DNA of 43,689 nucleotides from a virus (lineage: Duplodnaviria > Heunggongvirae > Uroviricota > Caudoviricetes). This document shows, in pieces, positions 16,102-43,689 of the stretch. The position numbers and the translations under genes were made by a program. The stretch covers positions 1 to 43,689 of the IMG/VR virus record IMGVR_UViG_3300045988_038444, one strand, 5' to 3'. Within the stretch, counting starts at the first letter, position 1. Every line of letters begins with the position of its first letter. The notes under the pieces are model-generated. The model saw only the letters and a list, made by a program, of their open reading frames with translations, was not told the DNA's origin and searched no databases.

Positions 16102-16145
16102 GAAGCATATACACAGTTTAACACGGGTCTAAAAAGCGACAAACG

Positions 16146-16190
16146 TTTAAAATAATTCTTGACGGATTACACAATGATGTGTAACCTACA
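16146..16190 (+). promoter_or_regulatory. Conserved early promoter copy: A/T-rich UP-like tttaaaataattc, -35 TTGACG (16159-16164), 17-nt spacer, -10 taacct
   Basis: One of at least nine near-identical plus-strand copies of tttaaaataattcTTGAC. Confidence 0.7.
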
Positions 16191-16217
16191 ATCAACAAAA
16201 CAACGGAGAGTTACAAA

Positions 16218-16398: not shown

Positions 16399-17310
16399 AT
16401 GAGTAGGAAACGTTTAACCACAGAAGAGTTTATCACGCGTGCCCGTGAAGTTCATGGGCACAAATACGATTACTCACTAGTGGAGTATTTGAATTGGCGC
16501 ACACCTGTGAAAATCATCTGTCCTATACATGGAGTGTTTGAACAAATTCCTAATAATCATTTAAAAGGACGCAAGTGTTTATTCTGTGCAGGAAATCAAC
16601 AATCAAATACCAATGAATTTATCACAAGGGGGCGCGAAGTTCATGGGGGTAAGTATGGTTATTCGTTGGTGAAATATAAAGACTCTCGGACCAAAGTGAA
16701 AATCATTTGTCCAATACACGGAATGTTTGAACAACGTCCATATAGTCACTTGCAGCAAAAAGCAGGTTGCCCACAATGTGCTTGGGAACAATTGTCTGAA
16801 CAAAGACGTTTATCCGCCGAAGAATTCATTACTCGTGCTCGCGAAGTTCACGGGGACCGTTACGACTATTCGTTGGTGGAGTATGTTAACAATTCCACCC
16901 CTGTAAAAATTATTTGTTCAGAACACGGTGTGTTTGAACAGACACCGGGCAATCACACATTTATGAAAGCTGGCTGTCCCCAGTGCGCTGAAACAGGTTT
17001 TAATCCGTCAGAACCCGGCACGTTATATGTACTCGCTGATGATAAACAGTATCCCACTCTGATTAAAATTGGTATTACAAACGACTTAAAACAGCGACTA
17101 CGACAACTACAACGACGAACTCCGCATCTTGTGGTTAAACTTGTATCGTATCCGTTCCCACATGGCGCTGACGCTTACAAACTGGAACAAGAGGTACACA
17201 AGGTCTTTCACGAACTTAATGCGCGTCTCAAAGGCTTTGACGGTGCTACAGAGTGGTTTAAATACTCTCCTGCAATCCTCGATTACATAAATGAAAAAGC
17301 CCGGAACTAA
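16399..17310 (+). CDS. T5orf172-domain (GIY-YIG-like) protein with three N-terminal zinc-ribbon-like repeats; homing-endonuclease-like
   Basis: Three ~60-aa repeats EEFITRAREVHGxKYDYSLVEY...PVKIICPIHGVFEQ...GCPQC; C-terminal YVL...KIGIT...TEWF matches the T5orf172 pattern. Confidence 0.65.
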   Translation: MSRKRLTTEEFITRAREVHGHKYDYSLVEYLNWRTPVKIICPIHGVFEQIPNNHLKGRKCLFCAGNQQSNTNEFITRGREVHGGKYGYSLVKYKDSRTKVKIICPIHGMFEQRPYSHLQQKAGCPQCAWEQLSEQRRLSAEEFITRAREVHGDRYDYSLVEYVNNSTPVKIICSEHGVFEQTPGNHTFMKAGCPQCAETGFNPSEPGTLYVLADDKQYPTLIKIGITNDLKQRLRQLQRRTPHLVVKLVSYPFPHGADAYKLEQEVHKVFHELNARLKGFDGATEWFKYSPAILDYINEKARN

Positions 17311-18025: not shown

Positions 18026-18091
18026 GGTTTTTTTACCTTTTATGTAGTAGACGATTAGATAGTAATAGTTCTGTACAAATTACGCAAGAGA

Positions 18092-18136
18092 TTTAAAATA
18101 ATTCTTGACGAATTACATCTGTTAAGGTATCTTTAA
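18092..18136 (+). promoter_or_regulatory. Conserved early promoter copy (-35 TTGACG 18105-18110, -10 tatctt)
   Basis: gatttaaaataattcttgacgaattaca. Confidence 0.7.
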
Positions 18137-18165
18137 CTCAACGAAACGAACTGAGGGTAAGAGGG

Positions 18166-21206: not shown

Positions 21207-22103
21207 ATGGGCGGTAAAAGACTAACCAAAGAACAACTAGAGCATAACATAAAAGATATTTGTCAATCAAAAAATTACAAATTTATAAAATGGAAAGACG
21301 GGTTTAAAAACAAAGAATCACGAATTATTTTATCTTGTGTTACACACGGGGAATGGGACACTAAATGTTATCATTTTTTGAATGGTTCTGGTTGTCCGAT
21401 CTGTGGTGGAACACGAACCACAAAAGGGTTAAGAATTGCACAGATTAAAGACAGTTTAACAAATTCTAAATCAAAGTTTATTAAATTTAAAACTAATTTT
21501 CAAAATGGAAATTCTGTTTGTTTGCTGAGCTGTATTGATCATGGTGGATGGGAGACAACAGTCAATAGACTAATCTTTACATCTGTTGATTGCCCGTTGT
21601 GTATAACGAATAGACAGAAAACTAAACAAGAACGAGAAATTGAAATAACAAATAGATGTAAAGAAACAGGGTTGTTTTTTAATAAGATATTCGACGAACA
21701 TCCGACATGGAAATCTAAAATATCATTAAAGTGTTCAACGCATGGTGATTTTGTTACAACAATTAATTCTTTTCTTAGTAAACAAAAAGGTTGTCCAAAC
21801 TGTAGTAAAACAGGGTTTAAAGCTGGTAAGTATGCAACACTTTATGTCTTGCGGTCCACATGCGGTCGTTACGTTAAAATAGGTATCAGTAATTGTGTAG
21901 AGCAAAGAATTAATACACTTCGTAGAAAAACACCATTTGATTTTCAAGTAATAGAAAAATTGAATGGACACGGGGCAACCATTCGTTCACTTGAAAAAGA
22001 TTTTCATTCTCATTTTGAATCTGCAGGATTAACCGGGTTCGATGGTTGTACAGAGTGGTTAAAATGGAATCCAAATATAACCACTCTGATACGGATGTTA
22101 TAG
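21207..22103 (+). CDS. T5orf172-domain (GIY-YIG-like) protein with zinc-ribbon-like repeats, second copy
   Basis: Start taken at ATG 21207 (MGGKRLTKEQ...). Repeats with HG...GCPxC modules and C-terminal TLYVL...VKIGIS...TEWLKW. Confidence 0.65.
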   Translation: MGGKRLTKEQLEHNIKDICQSKNYKFIKWKDGFKNKESRIILSCVTHGEWDTKCYHFLNGSGCPICGGTRTTKGLRIAQIKDSLTNSKSKFIKFKTNFQNGNSVCLLSCIDHGGWETTVNRLIFTSVDCPLCITNRQKTKQEREIEITNRCKETGLFFNKIFDEHPTWKSKISLKCSTHGDFVTTINSFLSKQKGCPNCSKTGFKAGKYATLYVLRSTCGRYVKIGISNCVEQRINTLRRKTPFDFQVIEKLNGHGATIRSLEKDFHSHFESAGLTGFDGCTEWLKWNPNITTLIRML

Positions 22104-26978: not shown

Positions 26979-27385
26979 GGGGATTGTCCTCGTATTGTTT
27001 CAACATGACTAAATTCTAACATTTCGGATGAATAATTGCACTGGTGATACACGCTGTTTACAACGTTACCGAATATCTCAGAAAGATTCTTGATCGGTTC
27101 AACAGCAGTCGTTACTGGTTCAACAGCAGTCGTTACTGGTTCAACAGTAGTCGTTACCGGTTCAACAGTAGTCGTTACCGGTTCAACAGCAGTCGTTACT
27201 GGTTCAACAGCGTCCAGATGTTCAGCGACAACCTGGAAAAACACTGTGTTAGTTTCACGGTCAATAATAACCACTGTGCTGGAACTATCTTCAACAATGC
27301 TGAATGAGTAGTCGTAACGATCACCGTGAATTTTACGGGCGCGACGAATGAATTCGTCTGTAGCAACTCTGATGTTCGGATCCAT
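26975..27385 (-). CDS. Repeat protein: N-terminal KYDYS module followed by six VEPVTT(A/T) heptad repeats
   Basis: Start taken at ATG 27385 (MDPNIRVATDEFIRRARKIHGDRYDYS...); the N-terminal module matches the repeat unit of the T5orf172 genes. Confidence 0.5.
   Translation of the reverse strand: MDPNIRVATDEFIRRARKIHGDRYDYSFSIVEDSSSTVVIIDRETNTVFFQVVAEHLDAVEPVTTAVEPVTTTVEPVTTTVEPVTTAVEPVTTAVEPIKNLSEIFGNVVNSVYHQCNYSSEMLEFSHVETIRGQSP
27105..27218 (-). repeat. Coding tandem repeat, 21-bp unit (ttcaacagcagtcgttactgg on the plus strand), about 5.5 copies
   Basis: Direct repeats visible at 27105-27218; encode VEPVTTA heptads on the minus strand. Confidence 0.85.
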
Positions 27386-27411
27386 ACATTCAACCCTTCT
27401 TGTTCTCTTAA

Positions 27412-27456
27412 CCACAGGGTAGTTGTGTCGGTGTAATCCGTCAAGAATTATTTTGC
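27412..27456 (-). promoter_or_regulatory. Inverted copy of the conserved early promoter, reading leftward
   Basis: Plus gtaatccgtcaagaattatttt is the reverse complement of aaaataattcttgacggattac; downstream leader nearly matches the plus copy at 27742. Confidence 0.6.
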
Positions 27457-27526
27457 GTATAGATTCATGGGAAGTATGCGACCCCCTATACCTTTTAAAC
27501 CTCTCCTACTTGCAGCAACTTTTACT

Positions 27527-27640
27527 ACTTATACTACTCTTCTATTTATCTATGTTTATTATGTTTTCTATAAAAAGATAACAAAAAGAATAAGATAGAG
27601 AGGGGTTGGTTAAAAAGTAAACATGACGAAATATATGAAT
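27527..27640. repeat. Conserved ~110-bp noncoding element, copy A (core 27567-27632)
   Basis: Core tctataaaaagataacaaaaagaataagatagagaggggttggttaaaaagtaaacatgacgaaat recurs at 42643-42708 with 4 mismatches in 66 nt. Confidence 0.8.
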
Positions 27641-27652
27641 CTATGATCTACT

Positions 27653-27733
27653 AATACACGTTCTGTATTAGCCGCAACTCAAAATCATGAAACCTATGTA
27701 GAACTATGTGCAGTTAGTACACGTTCTGTATTA
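27653..27733. promoter_or_regulatory. Two operator-like inverted repeats aataca-cgttc-tgtatt, 63 bp apart
   Basis: aatacacgttctgtatt at 27653-27669 and gtacacgttctgtatta at 27716-27733, just upstream of the promoter at 27742. Confidence 0.4.
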
Positions 27734-27741
27734 ACTGCATC

Positions 27742-27786
27742 TTTAAAATAATTCTTGACGGATTACACCGACGCAACTATCTTGTG
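27742..27786 (+). promoter_or_regulatory. Conserved early promoter copy (-35 TTGACG 27755-27760, -10 tatctt 27778-27783)
   Basis: ctttaaaataattcttgacggattacaccgacgcaactatctt. Confidence 0.7.
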
Positions 27787-27814
27787 GTTAACAGGAAGAA
27801 AAAGGAGACATGCA

Positions 27815-28876: not shown

Positions 28877-29114
28877 TCGCTATGGGAATGAAACAAATAT
28901 GGGATGGTAAAACCTTCCTTCTGTTGGTTGTGAAGTATTGATCCATCTGGCAAGCATTAACAAGTGGGTGGCACGAACTGTTCAGGGTTATGAAATATGG
29001 CCTTCTGTTTATGAAAATGATACGGCACATCACAGGGTAAACATAAAATTTGAAGATAATGTTCGTCTGTTATGTGATGTGCGACCTCTTGACTGGCGTG
29101 AACCTGATTAACTT

Positions 29115-29176
29115 GGTTCGATGGCTGTACTGAGTGGTTAAAATGGAATCCAAATATAACCACTCTAATACGTATA
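29115..29176 (+). pseudogene. Remnant of the 3' end of a T5orf172-type gene
   Basis: ggttcgatggctgtactgagtggttaaaatggaatccaaatataaccactctaatacg is near-identical to 22038-22095 (end of gene 21207..22103); encodes FDGCTEWLKWNPNITTLIR but has an in-frame TGA at 29105-29107 just upstream. Confidence 0.6.
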
Positions 29177-31312: not shown

Positions 31313-31342
31313 TCGTTCCTCATTGGTTAACGTTGACAGAAG

Positions 31343-31388
31343 TTTAAAATAATTCTTGACACATTGCAAGCAGTAACACTAACATTTG
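31343..31388 (+). promoter_or_regulatory. Conserved early promoter copy (-35 TTGACA 31356-31361)
   Basis: gtttaaaataattcttgacacattgcaagcagtaacactaacat. Confidence 0.65.
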
Positions 31389-32249: not shown

Positions 32250-32494
32250 CGATATTTAAAAACTCAATGGGCGATACTGTCGCGTATCTACCGAAAGTCA
32301 TTATTGCAGATCCATCCTGTGTTGATTACCCACACTGCAAGCAATCTGAAGCGACCTACAACGACCTGTGCGCTGATATTATGCGTGGTTGTGACATCGG
32401 TATTGAACGACTTCAGAAACTGCGGGAGGAATACGAAAAACGGTCTGTTCAGGCAGCAATGGGTTTACCGCCTGTATACGATAATTTAAAATAA
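32246..32494 (+). CDS. Hypothetical protein
   Basis: 82-aa ORF whose stop lies inside the next promoter copy. Confidence 0.4.
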   Translation: MTIFKNSMGDTVAYLPKVIIADPSCVDYPHCKQSEATYNDLCADIMRGCDIGIERLQKLREEYEKRSVQAAMGLPPVYDNLK

Positions 32495-32530
32495 TTCTTG
32501 ACGGATTACACAAGGACGTGTAACCTACAA
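32485..32530 (+). promoter_or_regulatory. Conserved early promoter copy (-35 TTGACG 32498-32503, -10 taacct)
   Basis: atttaaaataattcttgacggattacacaaggacgtgtaacct. Confidence 0.7.
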
Positions 32531-32556
32531 ACATCAAAACAAAGGAGGACACAATC

Positions 32557-34638: not shown

Positions 34639-34707
34639 GTTCTACAGGCTCCATACGGTTTACGGTTCTTAACGTATGTTATATCAGTGATGGTTTTTTT
34701 GCACGGT

Positions 34708-34752
34708 GTTAAAATAATTCTTGACGAATTGCAAACGTGCGATTATGCTTTA
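34708..34752 (+). promoter_or_regulatory. Conserved early promoter copy (-35 TTGACG 34721-34726, -10 tatgct)
   Basis: gttaaaataattcttgacgaattgcaaacgtgcgattatgct. Confidence 0.7.
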
Positions 34753-34780
34753 GTCATCAAATGAACGAAGGGTGATAACT

Positions 34781-38063: not shown

Positions 38064-38123
38064 GGTTATCGGCCCGTTTGTAACTGTTCTGTATAGTTTA
38101 CCACGGGTGATTGGTGGTGACAG

Positions 38124-38168
38124 AGATTTAAAATAATTCTTGACAGATTGCAGAAGTGGTGTCAGACT
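38124..38168 (+). promoter_or_regulatory. Conserved early promoter copy (-35 TTGACA 38140-38145; weak -10)
   Basis: gatttaaaataattcttgacagattgcagaagtggtgtcagact. Confidence 0.6.
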
Positions 38169-38200
38169 CTGATTATCAATTGAACAGGAGTAACACAGGT

Positions 38201-39320: not shown

Positions 39321-39527
39321 ATGTTCAGATACGTTTTAAAATTACTCGCCATTATTGCAACATGGCTAATCATACAGTCCGGGTATGACCTGCGTGTTCG
39401 TAACCAATGTTCAGACTATCAACGCATTACACGAACTGCGACAATCTACAGTCACGGTATTTGTTACGCGGCAGACAGTGACGGACAGTTTAAAATAATT
39501 CTTGACGGTTTACACATCATCAGATAG
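39321..39527 (+). CDS. Hypothetical small protein with hydrophobic N-terminus
   Basis: ggag RBS; 3' end overlaps the next promoter copy. Confidence 0.35.
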   Translation: MFRYVLKLLAIIATWLIIQSGYDLRVRNQCSDYQRITRTATIYSHGICYAADSDGQFKIILDGLHIIR

Positions 39528-39533
39528 ACTTCA
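39489..39533 (+). promoter_or_regulatory. Conserved early promoter copy (-35 TTGACG 39502-39507, -10 tagact)
   Basis: gtttaaaataattcttgacggtttacacatcatcagatagact. Confidence 0.65.
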
Positions 39534-39562
39534 GTTTGTGTAAAACAACTGGAGTTATCACC

Positions 39563-41017: not shown

Positions 41018-41346
41018 GAACAGAACAGGAACGTATTATTCAGTGGTTATGTTCTGGTGAAACCGGACTAAGCTCTAAAACGATGGTCTGCATTCACACG
41101 GGTAATGAAATGGGTTACGGCTGGGAGTTTAGAGCACCCTTTGACGTTTCTGATTTTCGCCGTTGTTGGTTCCTGGTTGAAGCTGTGCCAGAAATCAGAA
41201 ACAGTTTTCCGTTGATTGCTGAAAAGTGTCCGGCGTTTAAAGGTGTGATTGAAAACTGGGACGTTATTAGCGCAGCTTATGAACGTGAACGCGGATCCGG
41301 TAAATGTCCTGAAACGTATCGGTTACTGAAAGAAAGTTTAAAATAA
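41014..41346 (+). CDS. Hypothetical protein
   Basis: 110-aa ORF; stop lies within the next promoter copy. Confidence 0.45.
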
Positions 41347-41381
41347 TTCTTGACGGGTTGCACAAGGAAGTGTAATATTAC
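41337..41381 (+). promoter_or_regulatory. Conserved early promoter copy (-35 TTGACG 41350-41355, extended -10 tgtaatat)
   Basis: gtttaaaataattcttgacgggttgcacaaggaagtgtaatat. Confidence 0.7.
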
Positions 41382-41412
41382 CTCATTGAAACGAATTATG
41401 AGGAACCGGAAA

Positions 41413-41697: not shown

Positions 41698-42333
41698 TTA
41701 TTTAAGCGCTTTCTGATACAGTTGCGCGATGTCGTCAATAGTTGCACCTTCAGGAACACTCTGAACCACGTTTCCAACCACACCAGACAATTCCACACGG
41801 TCGATACTGTTCCCGGTGATCTTATCCAGTTGTTCAGACGCTTTTGCACGAGTTTTCGGGTCGAACAGTTCACGTGTCACCAGAATGTATCCACCCAGCA
41901 TGTAACGTTTGTAGCAAACTACGTACTGTTGTAGATGGCTGGGGATATCGTCGGTACTGTTCACCCACAGGTGTTTCGCTTCCGTGTCGTCTTCACCAGG
42001 AACGATGACACGCTGACAATACGGTTCCAGTAATTCTTCAGCCGTGCTTGCCGCTCGTTTCCACCACTCGACACGACTCGTTAACGATTCCCCTACAGAC
42101 TCAAGCGCATGACTTCCCATCGCGTCCAGATAGTTCAACACCTTCGTATTCGACAGGAGGCGATGTGCGGTCGTTGCAGCCGCTGCATCAGACGTGTGAC
42201 CCGGATAAGCCTCTAAAACACATCGCGTATTGCTGAAGCCGTTATTGACACGATCTAACCACAGGTTGGCGAACTTGAGCTGTTCCGGCGACAACTCCAG
42301 AGCAGCCCTTTTAGCCCGGTCTGAAATTTTCAT
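41698..42333 (-). CDS. Terminase small subunit-like protein (Terminase_2-type N-terminus)
   Basis: Start at Met 42333 after gggaga; LSPEQLKFANLWLDRVNNGFSNTRCVLEAYPGHTSDAAAATTAHRLLSNTKVLNYLD fits the small-terminase DNA-binding pattern as I recall it. Confidence 0.5.
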   Translation of the reverse strand: MKISDRAKRAALELSPEQLKFANLWLDRVNNGFSNTRCVLEAYPGHTSDAAAATTAHRLLSNTKVLNYLDAMGSHALESVGESLTSRVEWWKRAASTAEELLEPYCQRVIVPGEDDTEAKHLWVNSTDDIPSHLQQYVVCYKRYMLGGYILVTRELFDPKTRAKASEQLDKITGNSIDRVELSGVVGNVVQSVPEGATIDDIAQLYQKALK

Positions 42334-42602
42334 AAATTTGTCTCCCATAAATTTTAAATTAGTTTCCCACAGATACCCACGGGTTGTCCACACGCCCTGT
42401 TTTACAGCTAATACAATGTTAATATTAAGTTTACAGTTAGTGCACAATATGCATTAATTTTCGACTATATACATAAATACGTAGCCCATAATCACAATGA
42501 TTTCAAAGACTTGCATAAAAACATAGATTACAATAGGTATCTCCCAGACTTTTATTTTAGCTCTATTTACAGCTAATACACTATATGCACTATCTCTATC
42601 TT

Positions 42603-42712
42603 TCTATACTACTTCTTCTTTATATCTATGTTTTCTATGTTATCTATAAAAAGATAATAAAAAGAATAAGATAGAGAAGGGTCGGTTAAAAAATAAACAT
42701 GACGAAATCTAT
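42603..42712. repeat. Conserved ~110-bp noncoding element, copy B (core 42643-42708)
   Basis: Matches 27527-27640; core 62 of 66 nt identical. Confidence 0.8.
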
Positions 42713-42729
42713 GTTAAGTATAACTTTAA

Positions 42730-42855
42730 TGCACAACATGCACTATATAATTCACAACGTGCATTAGCTGTGCCAACATAGATACACAACGTGCACTAAC
42801 AGTTAATACACAACGTGCATCTTGCACTAACTGCTAAAGCACAACATGCACTAAG
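42730..42855. repeat. Iteron array: five direct repeats of cACAAC(A/G)TGCA(C/T)TA
   Basis: Copies at about 42731, 42752, 42784, 42807 and 42839, spaced 21-32 bp, upstream of the HTH repeat-protein gene. Confidence 0.7.
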
Positions 42856-42938
42856 TGTAAATACACTAACATATAAAGCACGTCTTGCACTAGCTGCTAA
42901 TGCACGTTATGATTTATCCGTGGTCAAACAAGAAGGGT

Positions 42939-43689
42939 ATGATAATGAAAAAGAACCTTTTAGACGAATTAATAGATTTAAAAGGCGGGGTACAAAACGC
43001 TGTTGAATACCTTAATCGTCGAGGTGTTAAGGTGACTGTTGGTCGTTACAACCAATGGTTAAGCGGTAGGTTTCATCCTAAATATGAAACGATCAGTATT
43101 ATTCTTGAAGAGATTACTGACTTCACACTGTCACCCTTGCCAGTACAACATTCTGACGAAAACATTGTTCTTAAACACACAATACCGGTTACCGAACTGC
43201 GTCAGAAATTACCACACAGACGTTTTGCTAATAACTACTGGCAACGTGTCAGATACGTTGATTCACAGATCCTGGAAGCTGTTCACGGTCACGACGTGTG
43301 GACACGGTTTGAGGCGATGTGTGGTAATTTTGAATGTGCAAGATATGTGCTACGCAGAAATTTAAACGAACACACAATTACTGACAGTTGGATTCAAAAT
43401 GGTTTGCGCCGGGGATGGATCCCGGAATGTGTAAACGTAATGGTCGATTTGCTTGAAAAATACGAAGGCACCGGGACACCGTTTAACGTAATGGTTTGTG
43501 AACCACCTGTATCACGAGTGGAACCACCTGTATCACGAGTGGAAGCACCTGTATCACGAGTGGAACCACCTGTATCACGAGTGGAAGCACCTGTAGCACG
43601 AGTTGAAGCACCTGTAGCACGATTTGAACCGCCTGTAGTCGATGTCAGCGATTTGAAGGAGAAAATCAGACTGTATGCGTTATCACACA
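42939..43689 (+). CDS. 5' part of an XRE-type HTH protein with Pro-rich heptad repeats (3' end beyond the window edge)
   Basis: ATG 42939 after aagaaggg; open to the last base of the window, so absent from the track; NAVEYLNRRGVKVTVGRYNQWLSG is HTH-like; C-terminus is (E[PA]PV[SA]RV)x6. Confidence 0.55.
   Translation, partial: MIMKKNLLDELIDLKGGVQNAVEYLNRRGVKVTVGRYNQWLSGRFHPKYETISIILEEITDFTLSPLPVQHSDENIVLKHTIPVTELRQKLPHRRFANNYWQRVRYVDSQILEAVHGHDVWTRFEAMCGNFECARYVLRRNLNEHTITDSWIQNGLRRGWIPECVNVMVDLLEKYEGTGTPFNVMVCEPPVSRVEPPVSRVEAPVSRVEPPVSRVEAPVARVEAPVARFEPPVVDVSDLKEKIRLYALSH
43500..43640 (+). repeat. Coding tandem repeat, 21-bp unit gaaccacctgtatcacgagtg with variants, about 6.5 copies
   Basis: Direct repeats visible; encode EPPVSRV / EAPVARV heptads. 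Confidence 0.85.

Follow-up and report, generated by a model that had tools for sequence, protein, structure and literature searches.

In phage lambda, sites for the O protein adjoin an AT-rich region at the origin of replication (ori). SPP1, a pac-type siphovirus, has two dispersed and related origin regions, oriL and oriR, in which initiator boxes accompany AT-rich DNA, and one of these regions lies among late genes. In the phi29 switch, which involves p4 sites, p6, and the promoters A2c and A3, bent DNA and several regulator sites lie between divergent early and late units. As for packaging, SPP1 G1P acts at pacL and P1 PacA acts at its hexamer repeats. Here, we describe an element of about 110 bp that occurs twice in a 43,689-nucleotide (nt) stretch of tailed-phage DNA (IMG/VR record IMGVR_UViG_3300045988_038444; the whole stretch is referred to as the window). 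The two occurrences are copy A (27527..27640) and copy B (42603..42712), neither assigned to a strand, and the intergenic regions that hold them are called regions A and B. As judged from sequence comparison, the element is probably the conserved core of two control regions, each composed of a triplet of 9-mers, a bent and meltable segment, and flanking predicted sites for a helix-turn-helix (HTH) protein. Our tentative first choice for its function is that of an origin-of-replication-type unwinding and bending core.

Two copies of one element in the window and its relatives

A first-pass annotation of the window had listed an element of about 110 bp present twice, with a 66-nt core that was 94% identical between the copies. 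This description was borne out. A repeat finder run on the window grouped 27538-27637 and 42614-42713, the well-conserved cores of copies A and B, into a single two-copy family (100 nt, gapless, 90% identity), and a profile hidden Markov model of the element found exactly two copies (E ~1e-26 each). The 66-nt figure was exact, since 62 of 66 nucleotides matched between 27567-27632 and 42643-42708. Weaker similarity continued for about 30 nt to the left of the 100-nt repeat once one 1-nt indel was allowed. The number of 100-nt pairs with at least 90 matches expected in the window was ~7e-33, and it was 3e-8 when the match probability was set to 0.5, a pessimistic value for AT-rich DNA. A chance origin of the repeat was negligible because the expectation did not exceed 3e-8 even under this AT-rich model. 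Both copies were the GC minima of their own intergenic regions (21-26% GC) and lay between divergently oriented genes, in agreement with the location given in the first-pass annotation.

The window covers about 75% of a 9NA-like siphovirus genome (Sashavirus/Nonanavirus) in reversed orientation relative to the deposited records, and its gene annotation was transferred from Bas82, Sasha, and 9NA. The closest relatives are Escherichia phages PDP46, AVIO78A, PJ16, and KarinMuster_Bas82 (Bas82) and the 'Sashavirus' phages BDX09P1 and 536P12; more distant relatives are the Salmonella phages Sasha, Sergei, Solent, SP069, and 9NA. A search for the core among phage genomes, which had been proposed as a check, showed that all relatives examined (phages of E. 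coli, Salmonella, and Klebsiella) carry the element at both syntenic positions. Orthologues of copy A were found upstream of the head operon in 15 phage records, including 9NA and SP069, and also in Klebsiella phage KP13-27. Orthologues of copy B were found between the terminase gene terS and the HTH-protein gene in 10 records, and shorter, diverged B copies were found in 9NA, KP13-27, and SP069. In 9NA and KP13-27, the A copy was full length and the B copy retained the left part and a TAAAAAGTAA block, without the A-rich centre of about 38 nt; SP069 agreed with this pattern as far as its contigs reach.

Similarity between region A of the window and that of Sasha was limited to the element (79% identity), the flanks being unalignable, and similarity between region B and that of BDX09P1 ended at the right edge of the element. 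By these alignments, the element is an island of conservation among variable flanks. Within the group formed by Sasha and the E. coli phages, copy B resembled copy A (~90%) and the identity matrix was reticulate. Copy A of the window was 93% identical to copy B of 536P12 and 87% identical to copy A of Bas82, which in turn was 94% identical to copy B of the window. The alignment also showed that variable-patch haplotypes GGGGTT, AGGGTC, and GAGGTT were common to A and B copies of different phages. These patterns suggest repeated sequence exchange between copies A and B and between phages, and the exchange between copies points to gene conversion. Given such exchange and the mosaic breakpoints at the element edges, the earlier suggestion of a recombination site applies in a weak sense only, and no sign of a recombinase or a dedicated site was seen.

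No match to the element was found in 5,426 complete E. coli genomes, and the core pattern had no match in 185,579 GTDB species genomes. A host-derived repeat or mobile element was rejected on the basis of this absence from E. coli and GTDB genomes (plasmids not searched). A degenerate 9-mer pattern hit about 120 unrelated AT-rich contigs in IMG/VR, and a rescan with the profile kept two true copies only (L036 and L068).

Many deposited records or contigs have one of their ends within copy B or its 9-mers, namely, 9NA (KJ802832, bp 1), Sasha (KX987158, end), PDP46, AVIO78A, PJ16 (bp 1), Solent (bp 1), and SP069 contig KC139651. These ends fit opening by convention in some records and assembly breaks at a two-copy repeat in others (SP069, PJ16, and Solent). 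A practical consequence is that assemblies appear to break at the repeat.

Anatomy, duplex stability, and predicted bending of the element

Read from left to right on the plus strand, the element consisted of a pyrimidine-rich arm (TCTTCT.TT.ATCTATG), 9-bp units, a purine-rich centre, a variable patch, and GGTTAAAAARTAAACATGACGAAAT. Three tandem 9-bp units could be read from the plus-strand sequence of copy A (TTATCTATG, TTTATTATG, and TTTTCTATA; 27546..27572), and three were present on the plus strand of copy B (ATATCTATG, TTTTCTATG, and TTATCTATA; 42622..42648). Their core, TCTAT(G/A), was kept in all A and B copies of all lineages, and copy A of PJ16 had an 11-nt insertion that added extra units. 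Seven of the nine TCTATG hexamers in the window were located in regions A and B. Outside these regions, two were observed versus 8-16 expected, which placed TCTATG among the 1% most depleted hexamers. In an alignment of 18 copies, the A-rich centre was near-invariant (copy A, 27572..27616, plus strand) and was composed of AAAAAGATAAYAAAAAGAATAAGATAGAGA, a variable patch of 6-8 nt, and GGTTAAAAA; in copy A, A5 tracts began at 27572, 27583, and 27612. The plus strand switched from pyrimidine rich to purine rich at the centre of the element, where the GC skew changed from -0.39/-0.58 to +0.44/+0.23.

Duplex stability was calculated with nearest-neighbour values in 80-bp segments. The two least stable segments of the window were the two copies (-82.4 and -82.8 kcal/mol; mean, -107.1; standard deviation, 5.9). 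Both copies also had the lowest stability when the complete Bas82 genome or 31.6 kb of KP13-27 was scanned, and in 9NA, for which 4-6-kb pieces were used, each copy was the stability minimum of its own piece. Low duplex stability is a conserved physical property in three lineages, even where the B sequence has diverged. An AT-rich segment at a stability minimum, as expected of the unwinding region of an iteron-type or lambda-like origin, was present at both copies.

The predicted curvature maximum of the window was at the centre of copy A (27573), with 31.7° versus 9.7 ± 5.2, and the centre of copy B (42651) was at the 99.8th percentile of the window; these wedge-model values, obtained with Bolshoy/Trifonov parameters, are indicative only. 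Inspection by eye showed no IHF consensus in the element and no consensus DnaA box (TTATCCACA) in or beside it. The closest DnaA-like sequence, TTGTCCACA, was about 210 bp to the left of copy B and was not conserved in 9NA.

Flanking palindromes and the gp84-like HTH protein

Copy A lies in a gap of about 290 bp between two nearly identical inverted consensus promoters, with the head operon on the left and a small-gene cluster on the right. The leftward promoter, P_L (27416..27454, minus strand; -35 at 27444), had a UP element and a position weight matrix (PWM) score of 11.5, and it drives the head operon, which encodes a small repeat protein, an XkdF-like protein, a 419-residue protein, the scaffold, and the major capsid protein. 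The rightward promoter, P_R (27742..27783, plus strand; -35 at 27755), also had a UP element, scored 11.1, and drives the small-gene cluster. Copy B lies in a gap of about 600 bp, about 270 bp upstream of the lone leftward terS gene (41698..42333, minus strand; phrog_51 terminase small subunit, so annotated in Bas82 and Sasha). To its right is a lone gene for an HTH protein (42945..43689, plus strand; 9NA gp84, Sasha gp81, and Bas82_0094; phrog_25538), which is truncated by the window end. This gp84-like gene was preceded by a promoter-like site (42885..42913, plus strand; TTGCAC-17-TATGAT; PWM score, 8.4).

Operator-like palindromes, given without strand, adjoined both copies. O_A1 (TAATACA-N5-TGTATTA; 27652..27670) was 11 bp to the right of copy A, and O_A2 (27715..27733) was directly upstream of the P_R UP element; both had 0 mismatches. 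Three palindromes were found to the left of copy B (42409-42427, 42438-42456, and 42574-42592, the last ending 10 bp before the element), and seven were found to the right, within 42727..42916 (starts at 42727, 42748, 42780, 42804, 42835, 42874, and 42898). Thus, ten palindromes surrounded copy B, which they bracketed within 10-15 bp, and two stood beside copy A. The palindromes at 42874 and 42898 overlapped the gp84-like gene promoter and covered its -35 and -10. Within the window, TARTRCA-N5-TGYAYTA with at most one mismatch was restricted to regions A and B, and the same was true of exact matches in the complete Bas82 genome. The site beside copy A was in the same aligned position in four lineages (window, 9NA, Sasha, and KP13-27), and its sequence was lineage specific.

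The gp84-like protein has an N-terminal Xre/Cro-type HTH, a conserved central domain, a linker of EPPVSRV heptad repeats, and an acidic C-terminal tail, an architecture that exceeds what a repressor needs. The protein was conserved in all relatives examined and was specific to this phage group. The central domain was considered as a second HTH and rejected (nothing by BLASTP; hhalign probability, 7%).

In region B, the site sequence and the N-terminal HTH of the adjacent gp84-like protein changed together across four phage types. The window type combined HTH recognition region GRYNQWLSGRFHPK with TAATRCA palindromes, and the 9NA type combined TTRYREWTEGKITPK with ATAACAC..GTGTTA sites. The KP13-27/SP069 type combined GR(F/Y)(T/N)EW(M/L)TGKRLPRAE with CTTACCAG, and BDX09P1 combined GRYNEWMAGKQYP with ACTATGAYAGGATTA. 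Because, and only because, the HTH and the sites co-vary, we infer that the HTH protein binds the flanking palindromes. The site type beside copy A was the same as that in region B in window-type phages, 9NA, KP13-27, and SP069. In SP069, the full-length gp84-like protein had a KP13-27-like HTH and both site types were present in the control regions. An extra stand-alone HTH of 69 residues and of the 9NA type was encoded in SP069 contig KC139651 (281-490), directly upstream of the full-length gp84-like gene.

The EPPV(S/A)RV heptads are encoded by a 21-nt tandem repeat (43479-43646), the copy number of which ranged from roughly 3 to 9 between phages; 9NA-type proteins lacked the repeats. The window ends about 40 nt past this array, inside the gp84-like gene, and its very start (1-117) consists of tandem CCTGTAGCAGCGCCTACACCAGCGGCAGCA repeats. 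Both ends of the window are therefore in or near tandem repeats, an arrangement suggestive of contig breakage at repeats.

Probable action of the element as double-stranded DNA

The element probably acts as double-stranded DNA, as a control element and neither an RNA nor a gene, to judge from the comparison of copies that follows. The first-pass annotation had offered a small RNA as one possible function and a covariance search as a check. This search gave no match in Rfam at the gathering threshold; at E<1, only chance eukaryotic matches were returned, with 15-22 bits versus thresholds of 61-95. Single-sequence RNA and DNA folds were calculated for six copy types. The plus strands of the window copies had RNA fold z-scores of -3.0 and -3.5 versus shuffles, which would favor a small structured RNA, but the signal was gone in both 9NA copies, Sasha copy A, and both KP13-27 copies (z, -0.4 to +0.2). 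RNAalifold gave -3.3 kcal/mol, with compensatory changes in 3 of 24 pairs, and folding as DNA was not significant in any copy type. Our scans found no promoter/terminator pair bracketing the element.

A related idea is that the plus strand encodes a small hydrophobic peptide resembling a type I toxin. Plus-strand open reading frames (ORFs) of 43 codons (copy A, 27467-27598) and 29 codons (copy B) specified hydrophobic peptides with the common ending YKKI(T/I)KRIR, and one such ORF is annotated in Bas82 (Bas82_0032). However, a six-frame comparison of 17 copies revealed no conserved ORF of which the element could be a coding part, as the first-pass annotation had stated. The ORFs were present in E. 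coli-type copies only; they were absent in 9NA, Sasha copy A, and KP13-27, frame-shifted by the 11-nt insertion in PJ16, and altered in copy B of BDX09P1. No Shine-Dalgarno sequence was seen by eye, and the N termini of the A and B peptides were unrelated. Because the DNA is pyrimidine rich and then purine rich, it yields a "hydrophobic plus basic" peptide in any frame, and on this comparison the two ORFs are composition artefacts. An RNA or peptide gene is therefore a very improbable account of the element.

The scan for promoters gave a similar picture. The best sigma-70 PWM scores inside the element were 5.0-5.5, versus 8-13 for evident promoters, and no match within the element was positionally conserved in all lineages, so a strong sigma-70 promoter in the element was rejected. 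Promoter-like hits in a consensus scan were as numerous as expected from shuffles. The element was 118-260 bp from the inferred starts of P_L, P_R, the gp84 promoter, and the terS promoter-like site and was therefore too far away to act as a UP element. One could still suppose that its right end (AAAAAG plus TAAACA) supplies the UP element and -35 of a weak, regulated rightward promoter, with a -10 (TATGAT in A and TATAAC in B) just outside the repeat that would be covered by the first operator. A simple scan did find TAAACA-18-TATGAT at 27618-27647, and the layout of conserved block, variable 18-nt spacer, ATCTATGWT, and operator recurred in the A copies of 9NA, Sasha, and KP13-27. We consider such a promoter unlikely: the match was below the PWM listing threshold of 5, the number of promoter-like hits did not exceed that in shuffles, the B copies of 9NA and KP13-27 lacked this right-end part, and the proposal accounts for only about 30 of the 100 conserved nucleotides.

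Among the functions first proposed for the element, a shared regulatory platform fits these observations, namely, a conserved island with variable flanks and adjoining operator-like palindromes in two divergent control regions.

A candidate origin-type core and its alternatives

Starting from the observed anatomy, conservation, physical properties, restriction of the palindromes to regions A and B, and HTH/site co-variation, we infer protein binding, unwinding, and replication initiation in the following way. The HTH protein would coat the flanking palindromes, ten of which surround copy B beside the protein's own gene and two of which stand beside copy A, and a conserved factor would bind the 9-mers. 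Divergent transcription on either side would generate negative supercoiling, the AT-rich core would open, and the phage helicase/primase would load. Copy B would serve as the main origin and copy A as a secondary one, in the manner of SPP1 oriL and oriR.

We ranked this origin-type function first, as a tentative choice, for five reasons. The genome-wide stability minima were kept across lineages; the sites in region B were numerous and bracketed the element beside the protein's own gene; the gp84-like protein is multidomain; both copies lie between divergent promoters, where negative supercoils gather; and five other virion/small-gene junctions lacked the element. The supercoiling argument follows the twin-domain model, in which negative supercoils accumulate between divergent promoters. 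The predicted curvature peak at the centre of the element and the lack of a strong promoter inside it also count in favor of an origin, as do the confinement of the palindromes to regions A and B, the constant placement of a site beside copy A, and the joint change of HTH and sites, including the two HTHs and two site types of SP069.

Several observations weigh against an origin. Palindromes over the protein's own promoter are what one would expect of a plain autoregulated repressor, and copy A has only two sites. The element has about 30 nt of near-invariant sequence, which is more than an unwinding element needs. The cumulative GC skew of the full Bas82 genome tracked gene orientation and gave no origin signal, and upstream regulatory regions, too, typically have curved AT-rich DNA. 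The gp84-like protein had no similarity to Phage_rep_O or any known initiator family. In addition, the copy-A sites of the recombinants Sasha and BDX09P1 did not match the specificity of the resident HTH. As no HTH paralogue was found elsewhere in the window or in Bas82, this mismatch means that pairing of the protein with the A sites is not obligatory for viability.

The main rival is a possible, if somewhat doubtful, role as the architectural core of an early/late transcription switch. On this view, a looped nucleoprotein complex made up of the bent AT-rich element and the HTH sites would stand between a leftward virion operon (the head operon at A and terS at B) and a rightward early-type promoter. 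Its effect would be repression of the early promoter, stimulation of the late promoter, or both, as with phi29 p4 and p6 between A2c and A3. To the left of either copy are virion genes and to the right is a sigma-70-type promoter, and the two palindromes over the -35 and -10 of the HTH-protein gene promoter have a classic autorepression layout. The two left-most sites in region B were centred at about -53 and -82 from the inferred terS start (an estimate), the HTH is of the Xre/Cro repressor type, and intrinsic bends are common in such regions. In contrast, neither the element nor the palindromes were found at five other divergent virion/small-gene junctions (16.1, 18.1, 31.4, 34.7, and 38.1 kb), and all inferred start sites are 118-260 bp away from the element. 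Between 9NA and the window, the placement of the second A site with respect to P_R differed by about 5 bp, and helical phase to P_R is therefore not kept. The viable mosaics with mismatched A sites also argue against a switch.

The position of copy B near terS raises another alternative, namely, that the element is pac recognition DNA, with the small terminase binding the TCTATG repeats in bent AT-rich DNA beside its own gene. In line with this idea, 9NA is a pac-type headful packager (PMC4153490). Copy B is about 270 bp upstream of terS, and the TCTATG hexamers are clustered in regions A and B and depleted elsewhere. TerS of the window is 83-84% identical to TerS of 9NA and KP13-27; like the 9-mers and unlike the palindromes, it is conserved across lineages in which the HTH and the sites vary. 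On the other side, the pac sites of P22 and Sf6 are inside terS. The element is present in two copies 15 kb apart in every genome, no packaging gene is near copy A, and 9NA DNA yields a single pac fragment (PMC4153490). We regard a pac function as improbable.

The origin-type reading can be taken further. The element could be the melting core of a two-origin system run by an unrecognised, 9NA-group-specific initiator family (phrog_25538) with a swappable HTH, a proposal that we consider speculative and rather doubtful. If it holds, an HTH swap would re-target the initiator to new flanking sites, and the 9-mer/A-tract core would stay fixed and be homogenised by gene conversion.

Other features of the window

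The divergent promoters of region A and their leaders (including GTGGTTAA) formed a 61-nt inverted repeat (27394-27454 versus 27745-27805; 85% complementary). The leftward copy was absent in 9NA, Sasha, and KP13-27; in its place, 9NA had an extended -10-like site (TGATATTAT), and counterparts were present in Sasha and KP13-27. The window contained a promoter module, TTTAAAATAATTCTTGACGGATTACA (UP element plus -35), in about 10 near-identical copies, each followed after 17-18 nt by a -10-like hexamer. They were on the plus strand at 16137-16208, 18083-18154, 27742-27804, 31334-31368, 32476-32547, 34699-34770, 38118-38189, 39480-39551, and 41328-41399 and on the minus strand at 27416-27454. Nearly all of the modules faced rightward into small-gene clusters that interrupt the virion genes.

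A second motif, (A)CCCGTGG-TAAACT or TTAACT, preceded terS, terL, the tape-measure gene, and the head operon by 35-50 nt. Its positions were 42371-42382, 38095-38106, 16115-16126, and 27414-27425 (variant CCTGTGGTTAAG) on the minus strand, and variant CCGTGGTCAAAC was at 42919-42930 on the plus strand. The pattern had six matches in the window versus 1.5 expected, and motifs of this type were also upstream of 9NA and KP13-27 head genes. The motif could represent an extended -10 promoter of the late type.

The first gene of the head operon (137-146 residues), which adjoins copy A, contained a 21-nt tandem repeat of 6-7 copies (27067-27231). This gene was absent at this position in 9NA, Sasha, and KP13-27. 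Sequence modules were common to plus-strand ORFs of 303 and 323 codons (an endonuclease-like gene in Bas82) and this first head-operon gene (DUF723 in PDP46). The repeats concerned were three 150-nt internal repeats at 16410-16955, an inverted pair of 79% between 16819-16874 and 27303-27358, and stretches at 17233-17263, 22027-22096, and 29106-29175. A 70-nt repeat at 22.0 and 29.1 kb was 91% identical and carried a GAGTGGTTA...TAACCACTC hairpin.

Neither AAGCTT (HindIII) nor GGTACC (KpnI) occurred in the window versus 19-20 expected, and CAGCTG (PvuII) occurred twice versus 46 expected. This depletion suggests restriction-site avoidance.

Significance and comparison with known systems

In the literature covered, which included the 9NA announcement but not Zeng et al. 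2019, we found no description of the element and none of the origin(s) or early/late control of 9NA-like phages. As a type, the element is ordinary: a control or origin region that is AT-rich and bent and has operators on its flanks. Modest added interest comes from the homogenisation of the two copies by exchange, the swapping of HTH/operator modules about a core that stays fixed, and the orphan status of the protein family. The 9NA-like phages (Nonanavirus/Sashavirus) are virulent on Salmonella, E. coli, and Klebsiella and have a use in biocontrol, and Bas82 is part of the BASEL collection. For these phages, our analysis identifies two regions as the best candidates for cis-acting control and points to a likely cognate protein. 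The swapped HTH/operator pairs offer a natural example of modular re-targeting, with mosaic breakpoints at a conserved noncoding island.

Like SPP1 pacL and P1 pac, copy B has short repeated motifs and AT-rich bent DNA beside terS. In contrast to those sites, the element is duplicated 15 kb away by head genes, and 9NA has the single pac fragment noted above (PMC4153490). The three tandem short T-rich repeats at the stability minimum resemble the oriC unwinding element, with its three tandem AT-rich 13-mers; here, however, the repeats are 9-mers with a TCTAT(G/A) core, and the search by eye in and beside the element gave no consensus DnaA box.

With the phi29 switch, the regions share bent DNA and several predicted regulator sites between divergent units. 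The phi29 switch is one region of about 220 bp with promoters inside, whereas here all promoter-like sites are more than 100 bp away from the element, which is present at only two of about seven divergent junctions. The likeness to SPP1 lies in two dispersed, related regions of a pac-type siphovirus, one of them among late genes. There is no sequence or protein homology with SPP1, however, and SPP1 oriL is within the initiator gene; the two regions of the window are candidate origins.

Gene O contains the lambda ori, whose four sites are all on one side, whereas the element is intergenic, has sites on both sides, and occurs twice per genome; the gp84-like protein also differs from lambda O in that it resembles neither Phage_rep_O nor another known initiator. 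The parallels with lambda extend to DNA and protein. As in the lambda ori, clustered dyad-symmetric sites (here, predicted) for a phage-specific protein adjoin AT-rich, bent, and easily melted DNA. As in lambda O, an N-terminal DNA-binding domain is joined through a flexible linker to a C-terminal domain of the partner type, and transcription nearby would be expected to aid opening.

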